A stretch of 64,000 bases of DNA from an uncultured Gemmatimonadales bacterium (GTDB lineage: Bacteria; Gemmatimonadota; Gemmatimonadetes; Longimicrobiales; Gaopeijiaceae), in the NCBI GenBank assembly GCA_963809895.1, contig CAWELD010000003.1:160001-224000 (forward strand), written 5' to 3'. The position numbers were made by a program, and so were the translations under genes. The notes under the pieces are model-generated. The model was given only the letters and a program-made list of their open reading frames with translations, did no database searches and was not told the DNA's origin. Shown piece after piece: positions 25,369 to 55,340 of the stretch (positions are counted from its first letter, which is position 1; each line of letters starts with the position of its first letter).

Positions 25369-26292
25369 GATCCTATGGAAACCGCGGGCCCGGAACTCCC
25401 CTACCTCGAAGTCTTCCGGGCCGTGTGCCACGAGGGAGGATTCACCGCCGCGGCCCGGCGTCTGGGATGTAGCCAGCCGGCGGTGTCGTACCAGATCCGC
25501 AAGCTGGAGGAGATCGTGGGCCTCGAGCTGGTGGAACGGGACGGTCGCCGCCTGGTGCTGACACCGGCCGGACGGCGATTCCGGGTGCTGGCCGACGACG
25601 TCTTCGCCGAGCTCGCCAGGGTGCGGCGTGAGTGCGTTGCGGGACGACGCCTGGAACCGCTCCGCTTGGGCTCGGTGAGCGGGTTCGGGCGGTATGTGGT
25701 GATGCCGGCACTCCATCGACTTCGAGCCGAGGAGGAGGGCGATGGGCCCGAGGTCCGCCTGCAGTACGAGGCCGCCGACGTCCTCCTCGAGCGTCTGGAA
25801 GAAGGCGCGTACGAAGGCGCATTCGTCTACAAGCGAAGGATCACCAGCGGCGTGAGCTTCCGGCGCGTGTACGACGAGGAACTGGTCCTCGTCGCCAGTC
25901 GGGAACGAGCGGTGGAGGTCCGAGCGGGCGGTCTCGACCGCGTGGCGACGTTCGAGGCGGCGCCCTTCGTCACCTACGAGGAGTGCGACTACGTGTTCGG
26001 CCGCTGGTTCGACGAGACCTTCGGCGTCCAGCCGTCGCGGATCCTGAGCCGCTCCCACTTCACCGAGTTGGAGGAAGTCCTGGACTTCGTGTCCGCGGGC
26101 GCCGGGCTGTCGGTGGTGCCGAGGGATTCTGCCGAGGCCTGGTGTGCGCGGGACGAGGTCGAGATCCTCTACGCGGGTTCCGGGAATCCCTGCCTCAACC
26201 GGGTCTTTCTCGCCACGCGGCCGGGCTCCGAGGTGCGGCCGCTGCTCCGCCGTCTCGTGGAGTTGCTCGGAAGCGGACCGCGTCCAGGCTGA
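25366..26292 (+). CDS. LysR-family transcriptional regulator
   Basis: FRAVCHEGGFTAAARRLGCSQPAVSYQIRKLEE..G..LVER.GRRLVLTPAG. Confidence 0.95.
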   Translation: MDPMETAGPELPYLEVFRAVCHEGGFTAAARRLGCSQPAVSYQIRKLEEIVGLELVERDGRRLVLTPAGRRFRVLADDVFAELARVRRECVAGRRLEPLRLGSVSGFGRYVVMPALHRLRAEEEGDGPEVRLQYEAADVLLERLEEGAYEGAFVYKRRITSGVSFRRVYDEELVLVASRERAVEVRAGGLDRVATFEAAPFVTYEECDYVFGRWFDETFGVQPSRILSRSHFTELEEVLDFVSAGAGLSVVPRDSAEAWCARDEVEILYAGSGNPCLNRVFLATRPGSEVRPLLRRLVELLGSGPRPG

Positions 26293-26370
26293 ACCCGGCT
26301 GGGCCGTCACCCAACCCGATCCGCGCCTCTCCAGGGGACGCGCCTTTCCACTGCTTCCAGGAACGCCATC

Positions 26371-27798
26371 GTGCCCGCAGCCCCGATCCTGCCTCGTCGC
26401 GAAGAGCTGACTCCCGTGCTGGAACGGGTGATGGCGGACGCGCTCCGGTATCTTTCGGACCTCGACGAGCGGCCCGTCCTCGACCCCGCCGCCGGCGAGG
26501 TCATGCGGACTTTCCGTCGTCCGTTGCCCGCAGACGGCGTGGGCGCGGCCGAGGCGCTGCGGGAGCTCCTCGAGAGAGGCCTCGACGCCACCGCCGCCAC
26601 CTCCGGGCCGCGCTTCTTCCACTGGGTCACGGGGGGCACGACTCCCGCGGCGTTGGGCGCGGATTGGGTCACCGGCGTTCTGGATCAGCAGGGCTATGCC
26701 TGGTACGGGTCACCCCTGGCCGTGGAGCTGGAGGTGTTGTCGCTGGATTGGCTCAAGGAGCTGTTCGGCCTCCCCGCGGCCTGGACGGGCATCACCACGA
26801 CCGGTGCCAGCATGGCGAACTTCGTGGGCCTGGGAGCCGCTCGGCAGTGGTGGGGGCACCGACAAGGGAGTGACGTGGCGCAGGATGGACTCACCGGCCT
26901 GCCTGCCATGCCCGTGTTCTGTGGTGGCTACATCCACGCCAGTGCGGTGAAGGTGCTGGCGCTGCTGGGCACCGGCCGGTCCGGGGTGCGGCGACTCGTG
27001 CGCGACGACGTCGGGAGGATCGATCTCGCCGCCGTCGAGGCCGAGTTGAAGGCCCTGGACGGCTCGCCGGCCATCCTCGTCGCGGGGGCCGGCGAGGTCA
27101 ACGCCGGCGAGTTCGATCCCATCGACGCCATGGCCGACCTCGCCGAGGAGTACGGCGCGTGGTTGCACGTGGACGGCGCCTTCGGACTCTTCGCCGCCCT
27201 CTCGCCGCGTACCGCCCACCTCGTGAAGGGAGTCGAGCGAGCGCACTCCGTCACGGTCGACGGCCACAAGTGGTTGAACGTGCCCTACGATTGCGGGTTC
27301 GCCTTCGTGCACCACCGGCGCTGGATGGCCGAGACGTTCGCCTACGACGCCGAGTACCTCTTCGATCCCTCCGACCCGCATCCCGTCATGGGAGGGCTGG
27401 GGCCCGAAAGCTCACGCAGGGCTCGGTCGCTGGCGGTGTGGGCGACCCTGCGAGCCTACGGGCGCGAAGGCTACCGGAGCATGGTGGAGGATCACCTGGA
27501 TCTGGCCCGGGACCTCGCGGAGCTGGTCGATGCGGCGCCGGAGCTCGAGCGCCTGGCCGACGTCCCCCTCAACATCGTGTGCTTCCGCTTCAACCCCGGC
27601 ACCGTGCCCGACGACGAGCTGGATGCGCTGAACCGCGCGCTGGGGCAGCGGATCCTCGACGATGGTCGGGTCTTCGCCGGAACCACCCGCTACGCCGGGC
27701 GGGTGGCGCTGCGCCCCTGCATCGTGAATTGGCGGACGCGAGCGGACGACGTGGCCTTCTTCGTCGAGGTCGTGCGGGAGCTCGCCGCCGGGCTGTAA
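26371..27798 (+). CDS. PLP-dependent group II amino-acid decarboxylase
   Basis: PRFFHWVTGG, TTGASMANF, AWLHVDGAFG, VDGHKWLNVPYDCG (PLP Lys), NIVCFR. Confidence 0.93.
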   Translation: MPAAPILPRREELTPVLERVMADALRYLSDLDERPVLDPAAGEVMRTFRRPLPADGVGAAEALRELLERGLDATAATSGPRFFHWVTGGTTPAALGADWVTGVLDQQGYAWYGSPLAVELEVLSLDWLKELFGLPAAWTGITTTGASMANFVGLGAARQWWGHRQGSDVAQDGLTGLPAMPVFCGGYIHASAVKVLALLGTGRSGVRRLVRDDVGRIDLAAVEAELKALDGSPAILVAGAGEVNAGEFDPIDAMADLAEEYGAWLHVDGAFGLFAALSPRTAHLVKGVERAHSVTVDGHKWLNVPYDCGFAFVHHRRWMAETFAYDAEYLFDPSDPHPVMGGLGPESSRRARSLAVWATLRAYGREGYRSMVEDHLDLARDLAELVDAAPELERLADVPLNIVCFRFNPGTVPDDELDALNRALGQRILDDGRVFAGTTRYAGRVALRPCIVNWRTRADDVAFFVEVVRELAAGL

Positions 27799-27819
27799 TC
27801 CCCTACCCGAGAAGGGTGC

Positions 27820-27863
27820 TGCGACGCCTCTGAGATGTTCGTGAGACGTCGTGCGCGAATCCT
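27820..27863 (+). promoter_or_regulatory. SARP-type direct repeats (11-bp period) with a -10-like hexamer upstream of 27902
   Basis: TGCGACG (27820), TGAGATG (27831), TGAGACG (27842), 9 nt, AATCCT (27858); GGAGG RBS at 27892. Confidence 0.75.
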
Positions 27864-27901
27864 GTCAGGCCCTGGAACCCTCACCCTGACCGGAGGCAGC
27901 C

Positions 27902-29230
27902 ATGCCCGACGACCACGACATCGCGACGCTTCAGGACCTGGAGTGCTGCCCGAAGCTCGCCAAGGTGCCCACCTGCGACGTCCTCGACTTCCGCTACCGG
28001 CTTCCGTGGCGGCGGCAGGAGGGCCGTGTGGACGTGATCCTCCACTTCCGCCTGGAGCGATGCTCGGGACCCCTGGCGCTGGGGGACCTGGCGTACAGCA
28101 CCACGCTGTTCCCGGGCGAGCGCGTGCGCCTGTTCACCAGCGACCGGCACACGCGTTGGACCTACGATTCCGAGACGGAGCTGGCGTACCGCCACGAGAC
28201 CACCTCGGAGGAATCCTTCTACACCTTCGGCATGGCCCGCGCCATGAGCGACCTCTCCATCAGCGAGTCGGGGAGCTCGTCGAGCAGCCACGACGAGGAC
28301 TGGGCCTCGGGTGGCGGAGGCGCGTCGTTCAGCTTCCTCGGCATCATCAACATCGGTGGCGGAGGTGGAGGCGGAAGCTACGACGCCGATTCCAGCAGCC
28401 AGTTCGCCCGCAACCTGTCGCGCCACGCCGAGTCCTCGTCGAGCTACGTGGCCGCGGGCGTCCGCGCTCAGAGCACCACGTCGGTGGGCGAGGTTCAGCA
28501 ACGCAGCCACGCGGAAGGCGAATCGGAGTCCCACCTGGAGTCCGCGTCGCGGGTCTTCAGCAATCCCAACCGCTGCCACGCCGTCACCTACCTGTTCTAC
28601 AAGCTCATCAAGCAGCAGACCATCCGCTTCAGACTGGTGGCCATCGAGCGCGTGTTGGCCGATCCCTCCGCTCCCACGGCGCCGGATCGCACGCTCAAGC
28701 CCGACGTCGCAGGTGCCGTGGCGGTCCGTCCCCAGGCCGTGCTCGCCACCGCCAAGGATCGCGTGGAGGTGGAGCGGGTGGCCCGGGTGGCCGCGGCCGA
28801 GCGTCGCCAGGCGAGCCTGGGCCTGACCAGCGATGCCGTCGCGTTCGCCGGGGCGTCGCTGCGAGCCAACGCCTTTGCCGGTGAGCCGGCATCGGCGGCC
28901 GCGCGGGCCAAGGCCCTCGAGGCGGTGGACAAGGAGCTCGCCAAGGCCGGCCTGATCGACCGCGAAACCGGCGAGCCCACCGAGAAGATCATCGCCGACC
29001 TGTCGTGGGAGCGGGAGGAATGGCTCCCCACGCCGGGGCTCCTGGTAAAGGGGTGTCTGGACGCGTGCGGCACGTGCGAGCCGGCGCTGAAGAAGCAGAT
29101 CGAGCAGGAGCTGGAGCATCAGCGGCTCGAGAACGAGCTGCTCAAGCGCCAGATCGAGCTGCTGGACCAGGCCCAGGAGTATCGTTGCTGCCCCTCCGAC
29201 GAGGAGGAGGACACCGACGGCGATCACTGA
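27902..29230 (+). CDS. Hypothetical 442-aa protein, candidate beta-pore-forming protein
   Basis: Good RBS; Ser-rich segment with Gly-flanked hydrophobic tip; 10 Cys; C-terminal coiled coil. CDS is solid, function is inference. Confidence 0.85.
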   Translation: MPDDHDIATLQDLECCPKLAKVPTCDVLDFRYRLPWRRQEGRVDVILHFRLERCSGPLALGDLAYSTTLFPGERVRLFTSDRHTRWTYDSETELAYRHETTSEESFYTFGMARAMSDLSISESGSSSSSHDEDWASGGGGASFSFLGIINIGGGGGGGSYDADSSSQFARNLSRHAESSSSYVAAGVRAQSTTSVGEVQQRSHAEGESESHLESASRVFSNPNRCHAVTYLFYKLIKQQTIRFRLVAIERVLADPSAPTAPDRTLKPDVAGAVAVRPQAVLATAKDRVEVERVARVAAAERRQASLGLTSDAVAFAGASLRANAFAGEPASAAARAKALEAVDKELAKAGLIDRETGEPTEKIIADLSWEREEWLPTPGLLVKGCLDACGTCEPALKKQIEQELEHQRLENELLKRQIELLDQAQEYRCCPSDEEEDTDGDH

Positions 29231-29245
29231 TCCTCCGTCTCGAAC

Positions 29246-29314
29246 CGGGCGGTCTTCGAGGGCCGCCCGTGCACCGAGCCCCCGGCAGCCGCGTCCGGCC
29301 GCCGGGGGCTCGGT
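29246..29314. terminator. Two hairpins between convergent genes, probable bidirectional terminator
   Basis: CGGGCGGTC/GGCCGCCCG (29246-29269) and ACCGAGCCCCCGGC/GCCGGGGGCTCGGT (29273-29314). Confidence 0.65.
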
Positions 29315-29340
29315 CTTCCCGCCCGGGCTGGTGCGCCGGG

Positions 29341-31560
29341 TCAGGCACCACCTCCGCCACCGCCGCGCCCGCGCCCCGGCGCTCCGGGACAGGGTCGGGT
29401 CAGCATGAACGCTGCCACGTCCGAGGCGTCCAATCCCGACAGGCGGTTGTAGCCGTCCACGGTCAACGCGCGCACGTGCAGGCGCTCGGAGAAGGCCCCC
29501 TGGTCACACCCGCCCAGCAACGTCAGGGGGTCGAGGCCCGCTTTGGTGAAGGTGCAGGTCGAGCTCCGCGTGAAGCCGTTCGCGGCGGCGGTCGTGACCG
29601 GCCCGTCCGCGTTGCCCGACGGAACCGGTGTCGACACTCCCCGCTCGGTGCGGAAGCGGAAGTGCGCCAGGCCTCCGGGACGGCCCGCGTCGAAGGCCAG
29701 GGCCACCGTGGGTGCCGGCCCGGTGAGCGTGACCACACCGCACGCCGGATCCACACCGATCCCGGTGCCCGAAACCGGCTGGACCTCGCCGCCGCAGCGG
29801 GCGTTGTCCACGTGCAGGACCATGCGGAACGCCACCGTCTTTCCGGCCTCGGTGATCCGGTGATAGGGATCGGCCACCGCGGTCAGCACCGGGTCGGTGC
29901 CGAAGGGGGCCTCGTTGGTGGCGTACCGCAACGTGATCCCCTCGTCCTCCCACGCCACGCGGGCTCCGGAATCGTCGAAGAGCTCGAGTTTGAGCTCGTA
30001 CTTCCCGGCCCTGGGATCGGCCAGCCCACACGAGGGGCGGGGTCCGTCGGGCCACGGCGGCGCCGAGGTCTCCAGGTGCGCGCTGGCCAGATCCTCGCGC
30101 TCGTCGGCCACCAGCCACTCGATGCCCCCGGTGGGGGGCTCCTTGGGACGGATCTGGAAGCGCCCGGCGTTGGCGCCCGCCGGCTCCGGGCCCATGACCG
30201 CCACCGGTGCCGTGCCGTCGGGCATGGTGTAGTGACGGATGACCTGCCGGCTCAGGGGCGTCCAGTCGGATTCGGTGCTCCCCAGGGGGCGCACGGACCA
30301 CAGGTAATGGTGGATCCCGTCGGCCGCCAACGCGGTGCGCCCGAACCAGACCCGCGGCTCCAGCTTGCCGCCGAAGGCGAAGCGCGCACTGCCCGATGCG
30401 GCGTAGGCGAATCCCTCTTCCGCCTTACCTTCGTCGGCTCCCGCGGCGCTCGTCAGGATCTCCCCGACGCTCACCGTGCGGCCCACCGACAGCACCCAGA
30501 CCTGCTTGCCGTCGAGATCCGGCTCGTCGCTGCAGCCGGGCACCCGGCTGTCGGAGACCCTCAGCACCACCTCCGAGCCGCATTCGTAGTCCCAGTGCGT
30601 CCAGCAGGGAAGCGGAGGCGCGTACACGGTCTCCCATCCGGCGCCGAAATCGTACTCGACACGGAAGTAGAGGTCCGGCTTGTCGCCGTCGCAGTCGTAG
30701 GGGAGGAGGAGCTGGAAGCGCCCGTTGGCGTCGGTGGTGACCACCGCCACCTCGTCGCACCGGTAGCGCCACCAACTGGGCCAGAAGCACAGATAGGGCA
30801 GCAGGAGGCGCCAGTTGTCCACCAGCGCGCGGCGAACGGCCGGCGTCGCGGAGGTGCGCAACACCGTCTGGAACTCCATGGGCAGCGCCGTGGACGCCAT
30901 CTGCGAGCGGCGCTCGAGGTCGAAACGGAAGAGCGGTCGATCGAAGGGCGCGGGATCCGGACCAGGCCCTGGAGGCAGGGGCGGCTCGGGAGGAAGCGGG
31001 CCGATGGGGGCGGGATCCGGCCGCGGTTCCGGCGGGAAGGGAAGGGGGATGGGCCGCAGCAGATCGTCGCGCAGCTTGAGGATGTCGCGGTCGGGAAGCT
31101 CCAGGATCCAGCGCGGGACTCGATCCACCTCGCAGATGCGGACCCGCGCTCCGCACACCCCGCGCTGGTCCGACGCGCGGATCACGCGGCCCTGCACGAG
31201 ACACAGGCAGAACGGCCAACCGTCGAGGATGCTCCCCGGAATCTCCACCTTCGTCGTGAGATCGCCCGCGATGCCTCCGCGGAGAACGGGCTCGAAGGCT
31301 CCCAGCGCCTGCAGTCGCGACGGTGCGGGCGCATCGTCCACGTCGGTGAGCCCCTTCGAGGCGGGGACCAGAAACACCCGGCTTCTGGCGACGTCGCCGG
31401 GCGACATCGACAGCGTCAGCTTTCCCGACTTGACGTCCCCGCGCTCGACGAGGTTCCCCTGTTTGTCGTAGACGAAGGCATGCAGGGACTCGTCGAAGTG
31501 GGGTCTGGCCTTGGTGGTGACCTCCAGGGTCACGTTGTCGCCGGTCTTTCGTCTGGCCAT
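29341..31560 (-). CDS. Hypothetical 739-aa Cys-rich multidomain protein (split transthyretin/carboxypeptidase-regulatory-like domain, Pro-rich insert, beta-sandwich domains)
   Basis: ATG 31560 preceded by GGAGG; VQGRV...GARVRICEVD and TTDANGRF...DKPDLYFRV; 16 Cys; no signal peptide. Confidence 0.85.
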   Translation of the reverse strand: MARRKTGDNVTLEVTTKARPHFDESLHAFVYDKQGNLVERGDVKSGKLTLSMSPGDVARSRVFLVPASKGLTDVDDAPAPSRLQALGAFEPVLRGGIAGDLTTKVEIPGSILDGWPFCLCLVQGRVIRASDQRGVCGARVRICEVDRVPRWILELPDRDILKLRDDLLRPIPLPFPPEPRPDPAPIGPLPPEPPLPPGPGPDPAPFDRPLFRFDLERRSQMASTALPMEFQTVLRTSATPAVRRALVDNWRLLLPYLCFWPSWWRYRCDEVAVVTTDANGRFQLLLPYDCDGDKPDLYFRVEYDFGAGWETVYAPPLPCWTHWDYECGSEVVLRVSDSRVPGCSDEPDLDGKQVWVLSVGRTVSVGEILTSAAGADEGKAEEGFAYAASGSARFAFGGKLEPRVWFGRTALAADGIHHYLWSVRPLGSTESDWTPLSRQVIRHYTMPDGTAPVAVMGPEPAGANAGRFQIRPKEPPTGGIEWLVADEREDLASAHLETSAPPWPDGPRPSCGLADPRAGKYELKLELFDDSGARVAWEDEGITLRYATNEAPFGTDPVLTAVADPYHRITEAGKTVAFRMVLHVDNARCGGEVQPVSGTGIGVDPACGVVTLTGPAPTVALAFDAGRPGGLAHFRFRTERGVSTPVPSGNADGPVTTAAANGFTRSSTCTFTKAGLDPLTLLGGCDQGAFSERLHVRALTVDGYNRLSGLDASDVAAFMLTRPCPGAPGRGRGGGGGGA

Positions 31561-31621
31561 GCGCGCCTCCGCTGTGCAGCCGCCTGCCGTAGGCGGTCGG
31601 AAAAGAAAACTCGGGGTGCGG

Positions 31622-31676
31622 AGAATGTCCGACGGGCGTCCCAGGGCCATCTCGTTCCCGTCACGCAGACGTCCCG
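31622..31676 (-). promoter_or_regulatory. SARP-type direct repeats (four heptamers, 11-bp period) with a -10-like hexamer upstream of 31560
   Basis: Minus strand reads CGGGACG-tctg-CGTGACG-ggaa-CGAGATG-gccc-TGGGACG, 9 nt, CATTCT. Confidence 0.8.
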
Positions 31677-31879
31677 ACCGCAGGTTGAAGATCTCTTGTG
31701 TTTTCGTCGACGACCGCCTAGACATTGGGGGCCGGGACGGCTCCCCACCGTCTCCGGCGCGTCCGGAGGCGCATGGACCGGACGCCGGCCGGTTCGCTCC
31801 CCGGGTTCGAGGTCGGGCGAGGTCGCGTAGGAGAGGGGCCCTCTCCAACCGGTCGCCACAGGGCAGCACGGGGTCGCAC

Positions 31880-32755
31880 ATGACCTCCCTCGCCATTCAC
31901 CTGTTCGGGGGCGTCCGGGTCCTGCTCGACGGTGAGCCGCTCGGACCGTTTCCCACTCGTTGGTCCGCAGGGCTCCTGGGCTACCTGGCCCTTCACCGCC
32001 AACGGCTCTTCCACCGCGACATCCTGGCCGCGCTCTTCTGGCCCGAGGAGCCCGACGCCCGGGCCCGCAAGGCGCTTCGCAACGCACTGTGGCGCATGCG
32101 GGCGATGATCGAGCCGTCACAGGTGGAGCCGGAGCGCTTTCTCGTCGTCGAAGGTCAATCCGTGGGCCTTCGCTCTGGTCCCGACATCTGGGTCGACGTG
32201 GAGGAATTCGAGGAGCATACGCGCCCAGCCGACGCTGGACCCGTCGACCAGCGAGGCGCTGGACGTCTCGAACGCGCGCTGGATCTGTGGCGCGGCGAGC
32301 TCATGGACGGACACGACCACGAGTGGTGCGTCTACGAGCGCCAACGCCTCCGCCTGAGGGTGCTGGCTGCGCAGGAGCGTTTACTGGAGTTCCACATGTG
32401 TCGCGGGGCGTGGCAGGCCGCGCTCCGGCAGGGCGACGCGATCCTGCATCTGGACCCGTTCCGGGAGCACGTGTACCGGAATCTCATGCTCTGCCACCAT
32501 TCCATGGGCGATCGTCCGCTGGCGGTTCGCCGGTTCCAGCGCTGCAGAGAGCTGCTGGCCGACGAGCTCGGCATCGCTCCCATGGAGGAGACCCGGACGC
32601 TGTACGAGCAGATCCGCGCCGGCGACGTGCCCCACGGCGACGTCGCGATCCGCTCCGTGGACTCCAGGGTGGGACGCGCATTGCGGCGGGCCGAAGCCGC
32701 ACTCACCGAGATCCGCGCGCTCACCGCCATGGACGGCGCCATGGAGCACACCTGA
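31880..32755 (+). CDS. AfsR/SARP-family transcriptional activator (winged HTH + BTAD), stand-alone
   Basis: IHLFGG, LLGYLAL, RDILAALFWPE, LRNALWRMR, WVDVEEFE, ALDLWRGELMDG, LDPFREHVYRNLM, LADELGIAPMEETRTLY. Confidence 0.92.
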   Translation: MTSLAIHLFGGVRVLLDGEPLGPFPTRWSAGLLGYLALHRQRLFHRDILAALFWPEEPDARARKALRNALWRMRAMIEPSQVEPERFLVVEGQSVGLRSGPDIWVDVEEFEEHTRPADAGPVDQRGAGRLERALDLWRGELMDGHDHEWCVYERQRLRLRVLAAQERLLEFHMCRGAWQAALRQGDAILHLDPFREHVYRNLMLCHHSMGDRPLAVRRFQRCRELLADELGIAPMEETRTLYEQIRAGDVPHGDVAIRSVDSRVGRALRRAEAALTEIRALTAMDGAMEHT

Positions 32756-32820
32756 CGCATGCGCCGGCCTCTCCGCCGTGGTAGCTTGCCACCGTCGCGG
32801 GATTCCGTAGGGAGGAGTGC

Positions 32821-33090
32821 GTGCGCTTCTGGGAAGGTCTGGTCCTGTTCGGGACGGTCGTCTTCATCCTCATCGCGGTGGTGGGCTTGATCCAGGTCCA
32901 GCGGAGGCTGAAGGCGCGCGAACGCCTGCGACTGGAACTGGCGCGGGTGGTGGCCGAGCTCGGAGACGGAGGCGTCGGCGAGGGTGCGCGAGCCCGGGAC
33001 GCCGGACCCCGGGGCACGGCGTCCGCCGATGCCGACGCCGCCGGTTCATCCCCCGACGAGCCGCCCCGGGGCGAGGCACCAACGCCGTGA
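32821..33090 (+). CDS. Small hypothetical membrane-anchored protein
   Basis: GGAGG RBS upstream; one N-terminal TM helix and a low-complexity tail. Confidence 0.5.
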   Translation: MRFWEGLVLFGTVVFILIAVVGLIQVQRRLKARERLRLELARVVAELGDGGVGEGARARDAGPRGTASADADAAGSSPDEPPRGEAPTP

Positions 33091-33197
33091 GCCGTGTAGC
33101 GAGGGTTCAGCTCGATGGGGCGGGCCACCTGAGCAACCTGGAATCCCCCCAGGCCTTCTCGGATACCCTCCTGGGGTTCCTGCGCGGAGTGCGCTAG
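33087..33197 (+). pseudogene. C-terminal remnant of an alpha/beta hydrolase
   Basis: VSRVARVQLDGAGHLSNLESPQAFSDTLLGFLRGVR*, the catalytic-His tail only; no GxSxG part upstream. Confidence 0.65.
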
Positions 33198-33207
33198 ACT
33201 CCCTGGC

Positions 33208-34155
33208 ATGAGATACGTGCCACTTCTTCTGGGGATGGCCCTGGCGTTGGGCGCCTGTCGGGAAGCCCCCGACGAGATGCCGGCGCCGCAGCCGGTGCTG
33301 GCGGCCGACCGGCCCCCGTTCGACGGCCGGGCGGCCATGGCGCTGGTGGACACCCAGGTGGCGTTCGGACCGCGGGTGCCGGGACGCGCCGGGCACGCCG
33401 CGCAGCTCGCCTGGATGCTGGACGAGCTCACGCCGCTCGCCGACACCGTGGTGGCCGACACCTTCGACTACACCCACAGCGACACGGGCGAGCGGCTCCA
33501 GCTCACCAACGTGTTGGCCCGCTTTCGCCCCGAGGCCCCGCAACGGCTGCTCTTTCTCACGCACTGGGACACCCGCCCCACCTCCGACGCGGCCTCCGAG
33601 CCCGAGGAGCGCGCGCTCCCGGTGCCCGGCGCCAACGATGGGGCCTCGGGAACCGCGATCCTGCTGGAGGTCGCGCGCATCCTCGCCTCCCAGGATCTCC
33701 CGGTGGGCGTGGACCTGCTCTTCGTGGACGGCGAGGACTACGGTCCCACGGTGAACGACATGTTCATGGGATCCGAGCACTTCGCCGCGAACCTGCCCGA
33801 CGGGTACGACCCCCGGTACGGGGTGTTGCTGGACATGGTGGGCGACGCCGAGCCGCGCTTTCCCATCGAAGGCAACTCGGCCGAGCGGGCGCCCGACGTG
33901 GCGCAGCGGGTCTGGAGCGTGGCGGCTCGTCTGGGCTACGGGCAGGCGTTTCCCATGCAGGTGGGGATCGCGCTGTCCGACGATCATCTGCCGCTGAACG
34001 ACGCGGGCATCCCGACCATCGACGTGATCGACTTCGACTACGGGCCCGGCAACGCCTACTGGCACACGCCCGACGACACCCCGGACCAGGTGCGCCCGGC
34101 CACCCTCGACATGGTGGGCGAGGTTGTGCTGGAGCTGATCTTCATGGGAGGCTGA
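33208..34155 (+). CDS. M28-family peptidase / glutaminyl-cyclase-like lipoprotein
   Basis: Lipobox LGAC; FGPRVPG, HWDTRP, GANDGASG, DGEDYG, LLDMVG, DDHLPL, WHTPDDT. Confidence 0.92.
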   Translation: MRYVPLLLGMALALGACREAPDEMPAPQPVLAADRPPFDGRAAMALVDTQVAFGPRVPGRAGHAAQLAWMLDELTPLADTVVADTFDYTHSDTGERLQLTNVLARFRPEAPQRLLFLTHWDTRPTSDAASEPEERALPVPGANDGASGTAILLEVARILASQDLPVGVDLLFVDGEDYGPTVNDMFMGSEHFAANLPDGYDPRYGVLLDMVGDAEPRFPIEGNSAERAPDVAQRVWSVAARLGYGQAFPMQVGIALSDDHLPLNDAGIPTIDVIDFDYGPGNAYWHTPDDTPDQVRPATLDMVGEVVLELIFMGG

Positions 34156-54776: not shown

Positions 54777-54849
54777 GCTGGCGTAGCTCAACTGGTAGAG
54801 CAGCTGCCTTGTAAGCAGCAGGTTGCAGGTTCGAGTCCTGTCGCCAGCT
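54777..54849 (+). tRNA. tRNA-Thr (TGT)
   Basis: GCTGGCG/CGCCAGC acceptor stem, GCTGC-CT-TGT-AA-GCAGC, TTCGAGT loop; CCA not encoded. Confidence 0.97.
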
Positions 54850-54903
54850 CTGGCAGCCCGTGGTAGTAACCTGGCGCCCGGGCTGTCAGGGGCAATTGTC
54901 CCC

Positions 54904-54932
54904 TTGATGCCCTCGCGCGACCCGTTTACCTT
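54904..54932 (+). promoter_or_regulatory. Sigma70-like promoter for tRNA-Tyr/Gly/Thr-tuf
   Basis: TTGATG, 17 bp, TACCTT. Confidence 0.55.
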
Positions 54933-55037
54933 TCAAAGCTCATTTTGAGAAGCCACCTCCGAGCCGCGGGTGGCTCTTTCCTTGCCCGAACCGGGGGGAA
55001 GGGGAGAGGGCCACGCGCCCGCATGCCGGCTCGATGC

Positions 55038-55120
55038 GGTGGGGTACCGAAGCGGTCAAACGGGGCAGACTGTAAATCTGCTGGCTCATGCCTTCGAAGG
55101 TTCGAATCCTTCCCCCACCA
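55038..55120 (+). tRNA. tRNA-Tyr (GTA)
   Basis: GGTGGGG/CCCCACC acceptor stem, GCAGA-CT-GTA-AA-TCTGC, long variable arm. Confidence 0.97.
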
Positions 55121-55162
55121 CTGGACCGGTGGACGGCTCGGGCCGAAAGCCGTGAGCGATAC

Positions 55163-55236
55163 GCGGGAGTAGCTCAGTTGGCTAGAGCATCAGCCTTCCA
55201 AGCTGAGGGTCGCGGGTTCGAGTCCCGTCTCCCGCT
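55163..55236 (+). tRNA. tRNA-Gly (TCC)
   Basis: GCGGGAG/CTCCCGC acceptor stem, TCAGC-CT-TCC-AA-GCTGA. Confidence 0.97.
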
Positions 55237-55268
55237 CTCCGGCCAGGACGACATACGCCGGGATCGCC

Positions 55269-55340
55269 GCTCCGATAGCTCAGTGGTAGAGCGCTTCCTT
55301 GGTAAGGAAGAGGTCCCGGGTTCAAGTCCCGGTCGGAGCT
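55269..55340 (+). tRNA. tRNA-Thr (GGT)
   Basis: GCTCCGA/TCGGAGC acceptor stem, CTTCC-TT-GGT-AA-GGAAG. Confidence 0.97.

Follow-up and report, generated by a model that had tools for sequence, protein, structure and literature searches.

What do two cysteine-rich proteins outside any described family do when their genes stand, each behind the same kind of heptamer array, next to a small SARP-type activator in a bacterium that is no actinomycete? This question is raised by a locus in a 64,000-nt stretch of DNA from an uncultured Gemmatimonadales bacterium (the window, that is, the whole stretch, whose positions serve as coordinates below), where the open reading frames (ORFs) of a 442-residue protein, P0001, a 739-residue protein, P0002, and a 291-residue regulator, P0003, lie together. 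We propose that P0001 is probably a new long-stemmed variant of the aerolysin-like proteins, which the SARP might deploy together with an optional partner. What is added here for the P0001 family is a putative regulon marked by heptamers, a register of the hairpin and a predicted stem of fixed length.

27902-29230, plus strand: ORF of P0001 (442 residues), predicted to be a pore-forming subunit of aerolysin-like type whose stem is extra long
31560-29341, minus strand: ORF of P0002 (739 residues), about four beta-sandwich domains, optional partner
31880-32755, plus strand: ORF of P0003 (291 residues), small SARP-type activator with winged-helix and BTAD domains

Hairpin register and predicted stem length of P0001

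The part of P0001 on which the argument turns is encoded by two nested segments.

28121-28561, plus strand: predicted stem hairpin (codons 74-220), Ser/Thr-rich, of fixed length between a PGE turn and an NxN turn
28301-28384, plus strand: amphipathic Gly-rich hairpin (codons 134-161) with a hydrophobic tip at 143-151, the predicted membrane-inserting part

Covariation within the family carries the hairpin. In a mean-field coevolution analysis on 272 of 346 distinct rows, the top coupled pair, E122-R170, lies on i+j=292/294, and so do E52-R242, R74-S220, L77-A215, T108-G186 and S144-N150; seven of the top 40 coupled pairs have sums of 290-296, against 2.8% of all pairs. Coupling at sum 292 amounts to 8.7, where the other sums have a standard deviation of 1.04 and a column-shuffled control gives ~0, and the peak persists under other parameters and when 223 full-length sequences are aligned de novo. 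Because of this register we conclude from the sequences that residues 45-250 make one symmetric antiparallel hairpin centred on the tip, with PGE facing NxN. This evidence for the hairpin is independent of the fold searches described below, and stronger than they are.

The length of the hairpin is nearly constant. The distance from PGE to NxN is 149 or 150 residues in 211 of the 227 homologues in which both turn motifs were found, out of 347 sequences that include many fragments. Three remote paralogues, each 1077-1311 residues long, have a distance of ~150-153. Ser and Thr make up 27% of residues 82-219 and 10-12% of P0001 elsewhere. In the diverse alignment (A4) mean hydropathy alternates around the hydrophobic tip 143-151; in the alignment of the window's own clade (A1) the tip is Gly-rich and the alternation is not strong. 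With 72 residues per arm, the stem is predicted to measure 193-199 Å at a tilt of 35.5 degrees, which is that of the aerolysin inner barrel applied to P0001, 168-173 Å at 45 degrees, and ~158 Å if residues 103-133 are helical. The aerolysin inner barrel is given as 87 Å in PMC4947156. With ~87-100 Å taken as the yardstick for an inner barrel of the family, the P0001 stem, predicted at ~160-200 Å, would be about double that of aerolysin.

The comparison with aerolysin extends to the order of the strands. PMC5654971 describes the aerolysin pore-forming region as five strands with the stem loop separating strands 2 and 3 and a variable loop separating strands 4 and 5, strands 2-3 enclosing the stem and strands 1-4-5 lying outside; the symmetric hairpin with facing turns in P0001 is as this layout predicts. 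A monomer model of P0001 (predicted local distance difference test, pLDDT, 76; predicted template-modelling score, pTM, 0.68) has three long strands (41-69, 226-253, 369-390), two short ones (74-81, 215-220) and a C-terminal helix. The modelled five-strand order and C-terminal peptide may be shared with the aerolysin/ETX-MTX2 family (aerolysin, epsilon toxin, parasporin-2, Tpp/Bin, monalysin), the order of strands being matched by the coevolution while the structural scores are weak. The Ser/Thr-rich stem with its amphipathic, hydrophobic-tipped hairpin is common to both, and the whole core gives a weak structural alignment. In a second fold search over 770 chains, core alignments (residues 12-396) were almost all to aerolysin-family proteins at Z 2.3-4.1, among them Tpp80Aa1 (Z 4.1), Cry78Aa (Z 3.8), parasporin-2 (Z 3.6; 162 residues aligned, root-mean-square deviation (rmsd) 6.1) and epsilon toxin (Z 3.6; 166 aligned, rmsd 6.3). 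Among named Atlas clusters those of aerolysin/ETX come closest, with values of 0.77-0.79 which, being below 0.9, are a lead only. Unlike this family, P0001 has no sequence similarity to it, no evident receptor-binding domain and no signal peptide; it has 10 near-invariant Cys, and its stem is partly modelled as helices. Because its sequence and its predicted stem length set it apart, we do not regard P0001 as a plain member of the aerolysin family. The fold, coevolution and length evidence do support, so far as models allow, a pore-former-like nature of P0001, the sequence-only reading having called one of the two proteins pore-former-like.

That reading had also described both proteins as Cys-rich and without signal peptides, and both points hold. 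P0001 contains 10 Cys, each of them retained in 99% or more of alignment A1; P0002 contains 16, of which 13 are conserved in at least 91% of its alignment A2; C25 and C54 of P0001 lie on a further hairpin, i+j=79-81, in a disulfide-compatible register. No N-terminal hydrophobic stretch was seen: the best 10-residue hydropathy in the first 40 residues is 1.06 for P0001 and 0.31 for P0002, compared with 2.37 in the neighbouring M28 peptidase, and a value >2.0 occurs at the N-terminus of only one in 119 homologues of each family, hydropathy being a crude proxy and no signal-peptide predictor. As had been claimed, too, neither protein belongs to a described family so far as Pfam, NCBIfam, PHROGs and PADLOC (2023 library) return no match, and no description of the P0001 family was found in a literature search in which subscription journals were thinly covered.

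The SARP regulator and its predicted operators

P0003 matches BTAD (PF03704) at E 2e-28 and, weakly, Trans_reg_C (E 0.001, under its cut-off), and it has the small-SARP layout of an N-terminal winged-helix and a BTAD domain in ~300 residues with no ATPase. Heptamers of consensus YGNGAYG stand upstream of both unknowns.

27820-27848, plus strand: predicted SARP operator for the P0001 gene, made of three heptamers with an 11-bp pitch
27858-27863, plus strand: predicted -10 hexamer, 9 bp beyond the last heptamer, with identical spacing in L002 (twice), L003, L087 and L088 (L-numbers are loci and G-numbers genomes compared)
31637-31676, minus strand: predicted SARP operator for the P0002 gene, made of four heptamers with an 11-bp pitch
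31622-31627, minus strand: predicted -10 hexamer of the P0002 gene, 9 bp beyond the fourth heptamer, placed by eye

According to PMC10972967, classical SARP sites consist of heptamers that cover the -35 region at a pitch of 11 bp. In its size, its DNA-binding and BTAD domains and the 11-bp pitch of its presumed heptamers, P0003 resembles small SARPs such as ActII-ORF4, RedD and DnrI; unlike these it comes from outside the actinomycetes, its scores fall far short of the NCBIfam cut-offs for AfsR and BagI/FevR, and unlike cluster-situated SARPs its arrays precede two unknowns and an operon for a repeat protein, a metalloprotease and a HEAT-repeat protein, not biosynthetic genes.

The triple-heptamer pattern occurs four times, at three sites, in the source genome (G000; 5.3 Mb, 95% complete), against 0.07 occurrences expected, and not at all at six other spacings, which confirms the shared arrays of the two unknowns that had been read from the window. 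Since the pattern was derived from those two arrays, the independent test lies in the third genomic site and in other genomes. By an automatic rule, a hexamer with A2 and T6 follows 9 bp past the last heptamer in six of eight arrays. For the P0002 promoter to fit this geometry, its array must be taken to stop at the fourth heptamer (the script had extended it to a degenerate fifth), and the third genomic array departs from it in that the T of the hexamer is missing. A sigma-70 scan of the locus found nothing, as expected for activator-dependent promoters. The third array (L086:7043-10271; G000:C3:2965042 onward) precedes an operon encoding a 460-residue repeat protein, a 229-residue M12-like zinc metalloprotease and a 342-residue HEAT-repeat protein. 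This operon is a probable further member of the regulon, and the array suggests that the regulon is wider than three genes; the 460-residue first gene product was not found in five other genomes.

A heptamer matrix trained on the source genome alone was run on the 79 of 82 loci that have at least 150 bases upstream of the P0001 homologue. Five upstream regions reach an array score of at least 16.8, and the next best is 7.8. At three of these five (L002, L087, L088) the adjacent gene encodes a BTAD protein with 40-51% identity to P0003, and an equally close BTAD protein occurs in no other locus (L001 and L087 are one stretch, counted once). At L002 the gene order is partner, BTAD, P0001 homologue, with arrays before the partner and before the P0001 homologue. 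Three further loci (L047, L055, L063) have a more distant small SARP (30-43% identity) and a variant repeat, recognised by eye, at the same 11-bp pitch. The regulator itself is exchangeable: an AraC-receiver takes the place of the SARP at L008/L076. L054 has a MerR-TPR protein, and neither L054 nor L057 matches P0003. From motif, from promoter geometry and from the way in which arrays accompany close relatives of the BTAD regulator at three other loci of differing gene order, we infer that the small SARP binds the heptamers and activates both genes; the co-regulation put forward from the window would, on these sequence comparisons, be upheld. We found no SARP regulon in Gemmatimonadota in the literature searched. 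This regulatory part is independent of the pore interpretation of P0001: a clean SARP operator-promoter architecture, conserved in rearranged loci, appears to control protein products and not antibiotic enzymes.

P0002 and its pairing with P0001

P0002 is confidently modelled (pLDDT 88) as a chain of about four beta-sandwich domains, of which the first is an N-terminal beta domain. Residues 117-339 form a transthyretin-like domain (best Z 10.4, with an rmsd of 2.2 across 82 residues) into which a Pro-rich and helical segment is inserted, residues 589-723 form an immunoglobulin (Ig)-like domain (Z 7.6), and the middle beta domain was barely probed by the fold search. The matches include adhesins, pilins, the S-layer protein SlaB and complement-type and transthyretin-like domains, a shared fold which shows no function; a PDB sequence search returned chance rows only, and neither Pfam nor the fold search gave a catalytic domain. 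Partner subfamilies differ at the N-terminus. A lectin-like N-terminal domain considered for the partner at L087 was unsupported by PDB search.

Of 7998 scored candidates, at least 1937 are homologues of P0001, and at 50% identity the family has 784 representatives; for P0002 the homologues are 121 of 8000. They come from many phyla, and those for which the source gives a name are called 'hypothetical' or 'uncharacterized'. The closest genome match, L001, is from Gemmatimonadota. Full-length P0001 is present in three of 101 relatives and three of 401 phylum genomes, making four distinct genomes with the source genome included, and in all four (G000, G003, G012, G123) the partner gene is adjacent; that of G123 was missed by the genome search and matches profile A3 at E 2e-12. 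The order of the two genes is convergent, tandem or regulator-split, and their partners fall into several divergent subfamilies. Of the 17 metagenome loci that extend 3 kb or more to each side, four have the partner, two of these being near-identical. The homologue lists of P0001 and P0002 have six apparent shared contigs, by eye, including one pair with consecutive locus tags, and about one of the six could be chance. The pairing is thus recurrent but optional. The co-occurrence of the two unknowns expected from the window stands as adjacency in unrelated loci; an obligate three-gene system does not, as most P0001 homologues have neither neighbour (the partner is present in 8 of 80 metagenome loci, a small SARP in 4 of 80). 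In one P0001 homologue, P0301, an N-terminal domain resembles, by eye, the start of the L027/L087 partner subfamily.

As to what the partner does, P0002 would be an optional accessory made alongside P0001, with targeting, spacing or packaging as its most likely task; this is the weakest step of our account. Cry34/Cry35 and PlyA/PlyB, two-component pore-formers whose beta-sandwich partner recruits the pore subunit, offer an analogy in which P0001 would be the pore subunit co-expressed with a beta-rich P0002. Unlike their partners, P0002 belongs to a family of ~700-residue, multi-domain proteins with transthyretin-like and Ig-like domains and no aegerolysin, and its pairing is optional.

Proposed mechanism, its rivals and the surroundings of the locus

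We lean, with due reserve, towards a mechanism in which the SARP induces a pro-pore that, once released and activated, would oligomerise and extend a length-locked stem of which the tip alone enters the bilayer. Binding of the SARP to heptamers at 11-bp pitch would drive expression of P0001 and P0002, both of which would be made in the cytoplasm. The P0001 chain would run through strand 1, the PGE turn, the long hairpin, the NxN turn, strand 4, a helical insertion, strand 5 and the C-terminal helix. Upon oligomerisation residues 74-220 might give one hairpin per subunit in a stem of fixed length, ~160-200 Å, with only the tip (134-161) crossing the bilayer, so that the cap would be held 12-17 nm off the target membrane, as if reaching across a wall, an S-layer or a glycan coat. 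Since P0001 has no evident binding domain, P0002 may supply targeting or spacing. The conserved Cys and absent signal peptides would be accommodated by release through lysis or a non-Sec route, followed by disulfide or metal stabilisation. From the patchy distribution we consider a role against another cell more likely than a housekeeping one.

A number of results weigh against this account. In the P0001 model residues 103-116 and 162-190 are helical and residues 120-157 are of low confidence; coupling is weak in residues 82-102 and in the tip; and residues 103-133 show a ~4-residue coupling periodicity, so that this stretch may pair as helices and not as strands (here the side peaks at sums 290 and 294 exceed those 3-4 off). 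A constant register alone proves elongation, neither a beta-barrel nor a pore. All P0001 fold scores are within the weak range of the tools (Z <5 for the aerolysin family): the first Foldseek row is an aerolysin prepore, at E 0.21 and a template-modelling score of ~0.1, and in a wide fold search T-fold enzymes (dihydroneopterin aldolase, Z 5.2) and coiled coils come out ahead of every aerolysin. We took these T-fold and C-terminal-helix matches (Z ~5) to reflect a common curved-sheet arrangement. PDB sequence searches for P0001 gave chance rows or none, with no pore-former match even with a diverse profile, and none of 36 diverse members matches the Pfam profiles of aerolysin and its kin (PF01117, PF03318 and kin) at E <=1. 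On the regulatory side, L003 and L069, near-identical contigs of 3-4 kb, have arrays and no BTAD gene within the contig. As for the pairing, the low share of metagenome loci with a partner counts here as well, and the partner family is frequently met on its own, 4 of the 401 phylum genomes having it but no full-length P0001.

What else might a locus of this kind encode? Perhaps P0001 and P0002 are independent and share only their regulator, a serious possibility even if we would wager against it; each does occur without the other. This estimate stands apart from those for the other alternatives, as independence is compatible with the explanation that we favour for P0001 itself. The adjacency in all four genomes with full-length P0001, across varied gene orders and divergent partner subfamilies, argues for a functional tie, as does the fusion of a partner-like N-terminal domain to P0001 homologue P0301. 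A structural assembly without any pore, in which the long hairpins would form a disulfide-stabilised tube, fibre, coat or inclusion and the Ig-rich partner would be scaffold or decoration, has points in its favour: the hairpin register and fixed length would suit any elongated polymer, the adhesin, pilin, SlaB and transthyretin-like matches of P0002 and the near-invariant Cys of both families fit, and so does the tip of the window's clade. We still think it unlikely, considering that an amphipathic, hydrophobic-tipped hairpin sits at the exact centre of symmetry, more clearly so in diverse and remote homologues, that the core aligns with aerolysin-family proteins, and that no sorting or export signal was found.

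In anthrax-type binary toxins the stem serves as a channel for cargo. The long hydrophilic stem of P0001 might likewise conduct a cargo protein, or P0001 might itself be loaded into a contractile injection system, which would agree with the absent signal peptide, with remote paralogues embedded in proteins of 1077-1311 residues, and with homologues beside sheath and tube genes at L040 and near a tube-like gene at L113. Such an arrangement seems distinctly unlikely here, given that the tube gene PF06841 was found in G038 and not in G000, G003 or G012, that P0002 has no detected catalytic domain, and that an adjacent sheath gene occurs in one of 80 metagenome loci among the neighbours examined. 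Least probable of all, to our mind, is self-lysis or abortive defence, in which the SARP-induced pore would strike the producer's own envelope in the manner of gasdermin and its protease, with the co-regulated metalloprotease as activator. The missing export signal and the third array, with its M12-like zinc metalloprotease, could be read in this way. Against it, none of the three window proteins matches a PADLOC model of known anti-phage defence, the flanking genes encode a pyridoxal-phosphate decarboxylase and the M28 peptidase amid housekeeping neighbours and no defence island, the first gene of the third operon was not found in the five other genomes searched, and the C25/C54 register points to an oxidising setting.

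If the long-stemmed pore that we favour is real, the homologues of P0001, with at least 1937 close ones and with 784 clusters at 50% identity, become a testable class of pore-formers with a stem about twice that of aerolysin; the question then arises which fixed barrier of 15-20 nm is crossed, and a new scaffold for long nanopores would be at hand. More tentatively, and in our judgement rather doubtfully, P0001 might found a widespread and so far unrecognised class of stand-off pores, with a length-locked 150-residue hairpin, a ~20-nm channel, twice that of aerolysin, that would get to a membrane through a cell wall, S-layer or coat, and an interchangeable multi-Ig targeting partner of similar reach, deployed by a SARP outside actinomycete secondary metabolism. 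That remote relatives of 1000-1300 residues keep the hairpin length and that a giant-virus protein is a structural match is consistent with this idea.

The giant-virus protein is a predicted, uncharacterised one of 642 residues from Yasminevirus (BFVD A0A5K0U6Q4), which aligns to the P0001 model with 28% identity (E 1e-16) and is the sole viral match; no P0001 homologue was found in phage collections, plasmid collections or viral contigs. The remote paralogues lie at L037:4482-8414, L089:5952-9182 and L118:1016-4867 and have a clear amphipathic tip; the one at L037 adjoins a standard 442-residue-type gene. A search for longer fused forms of P0001 returned three weak matches. The P0001 homologue beside contractile-injection sheath and tube genes is at L040:1512-8036, and the one near a tube-like gene (so named by likeness to the L040 tube gene), in the company of a partner and a LuxR-type regulator, is at L113:9285-14918.

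Within the window, the layout of a stand-alone SARP gene and two convergent unknowns with a hairpin region between them, as given by the sequence-only reading, is confirmed by the ORFs and by folding z-scores.

29246-29314, no strand: two GC-rich hairpins (29246-29269 and 29273-29314) without a T-tract, between the convergent P0001 and P0002 genes

Folding of the intergenic sequence 29225-29345 beats 200 of 200 shuffles on both strands (z -4.6 and -6.0); no canonical terminator was called between the two genes, the hairpins having no T-tract. GC content at third codon positions (GC3) is 0.90, 0.88 and 0.83 for the three genes, and their GC and GC3 resemble those of the flanking genes. A recent-island origin was rejected on this ground and from the distance to the nearest tRNA genes; these are four (Thr, Tyr, Gly, Thr) at 54777-55340, 22 kb from the locus. 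No Rfam match falls within 26000-34000. Downstream of the SARP gene lies an 89-residue ORF with one membrane span (32821-33090, plus strand).

Among the other loci, two have a very Cys-rich protein with an N-terminus of helical repeats encoded close to the P0001 homologue (L038:1350-3764, 804 residues with 37 Cys; L070:5359-7362, 667 residues with 34 Cys); both had been rows of alignment A3 but were not counted as partners, since a left-out profile matched them only at E 4e-4 to 5e-4, a weak resemblance to the partner family. A P0001 homologue is split across two reading frames at L078:7947-9328 and at L079:4473-5854. A DUF1360-like small membrane protein recurs beside the partner or a P0001 homologue at L004, L022, L027, L038, L055, L063, L115 and L117.

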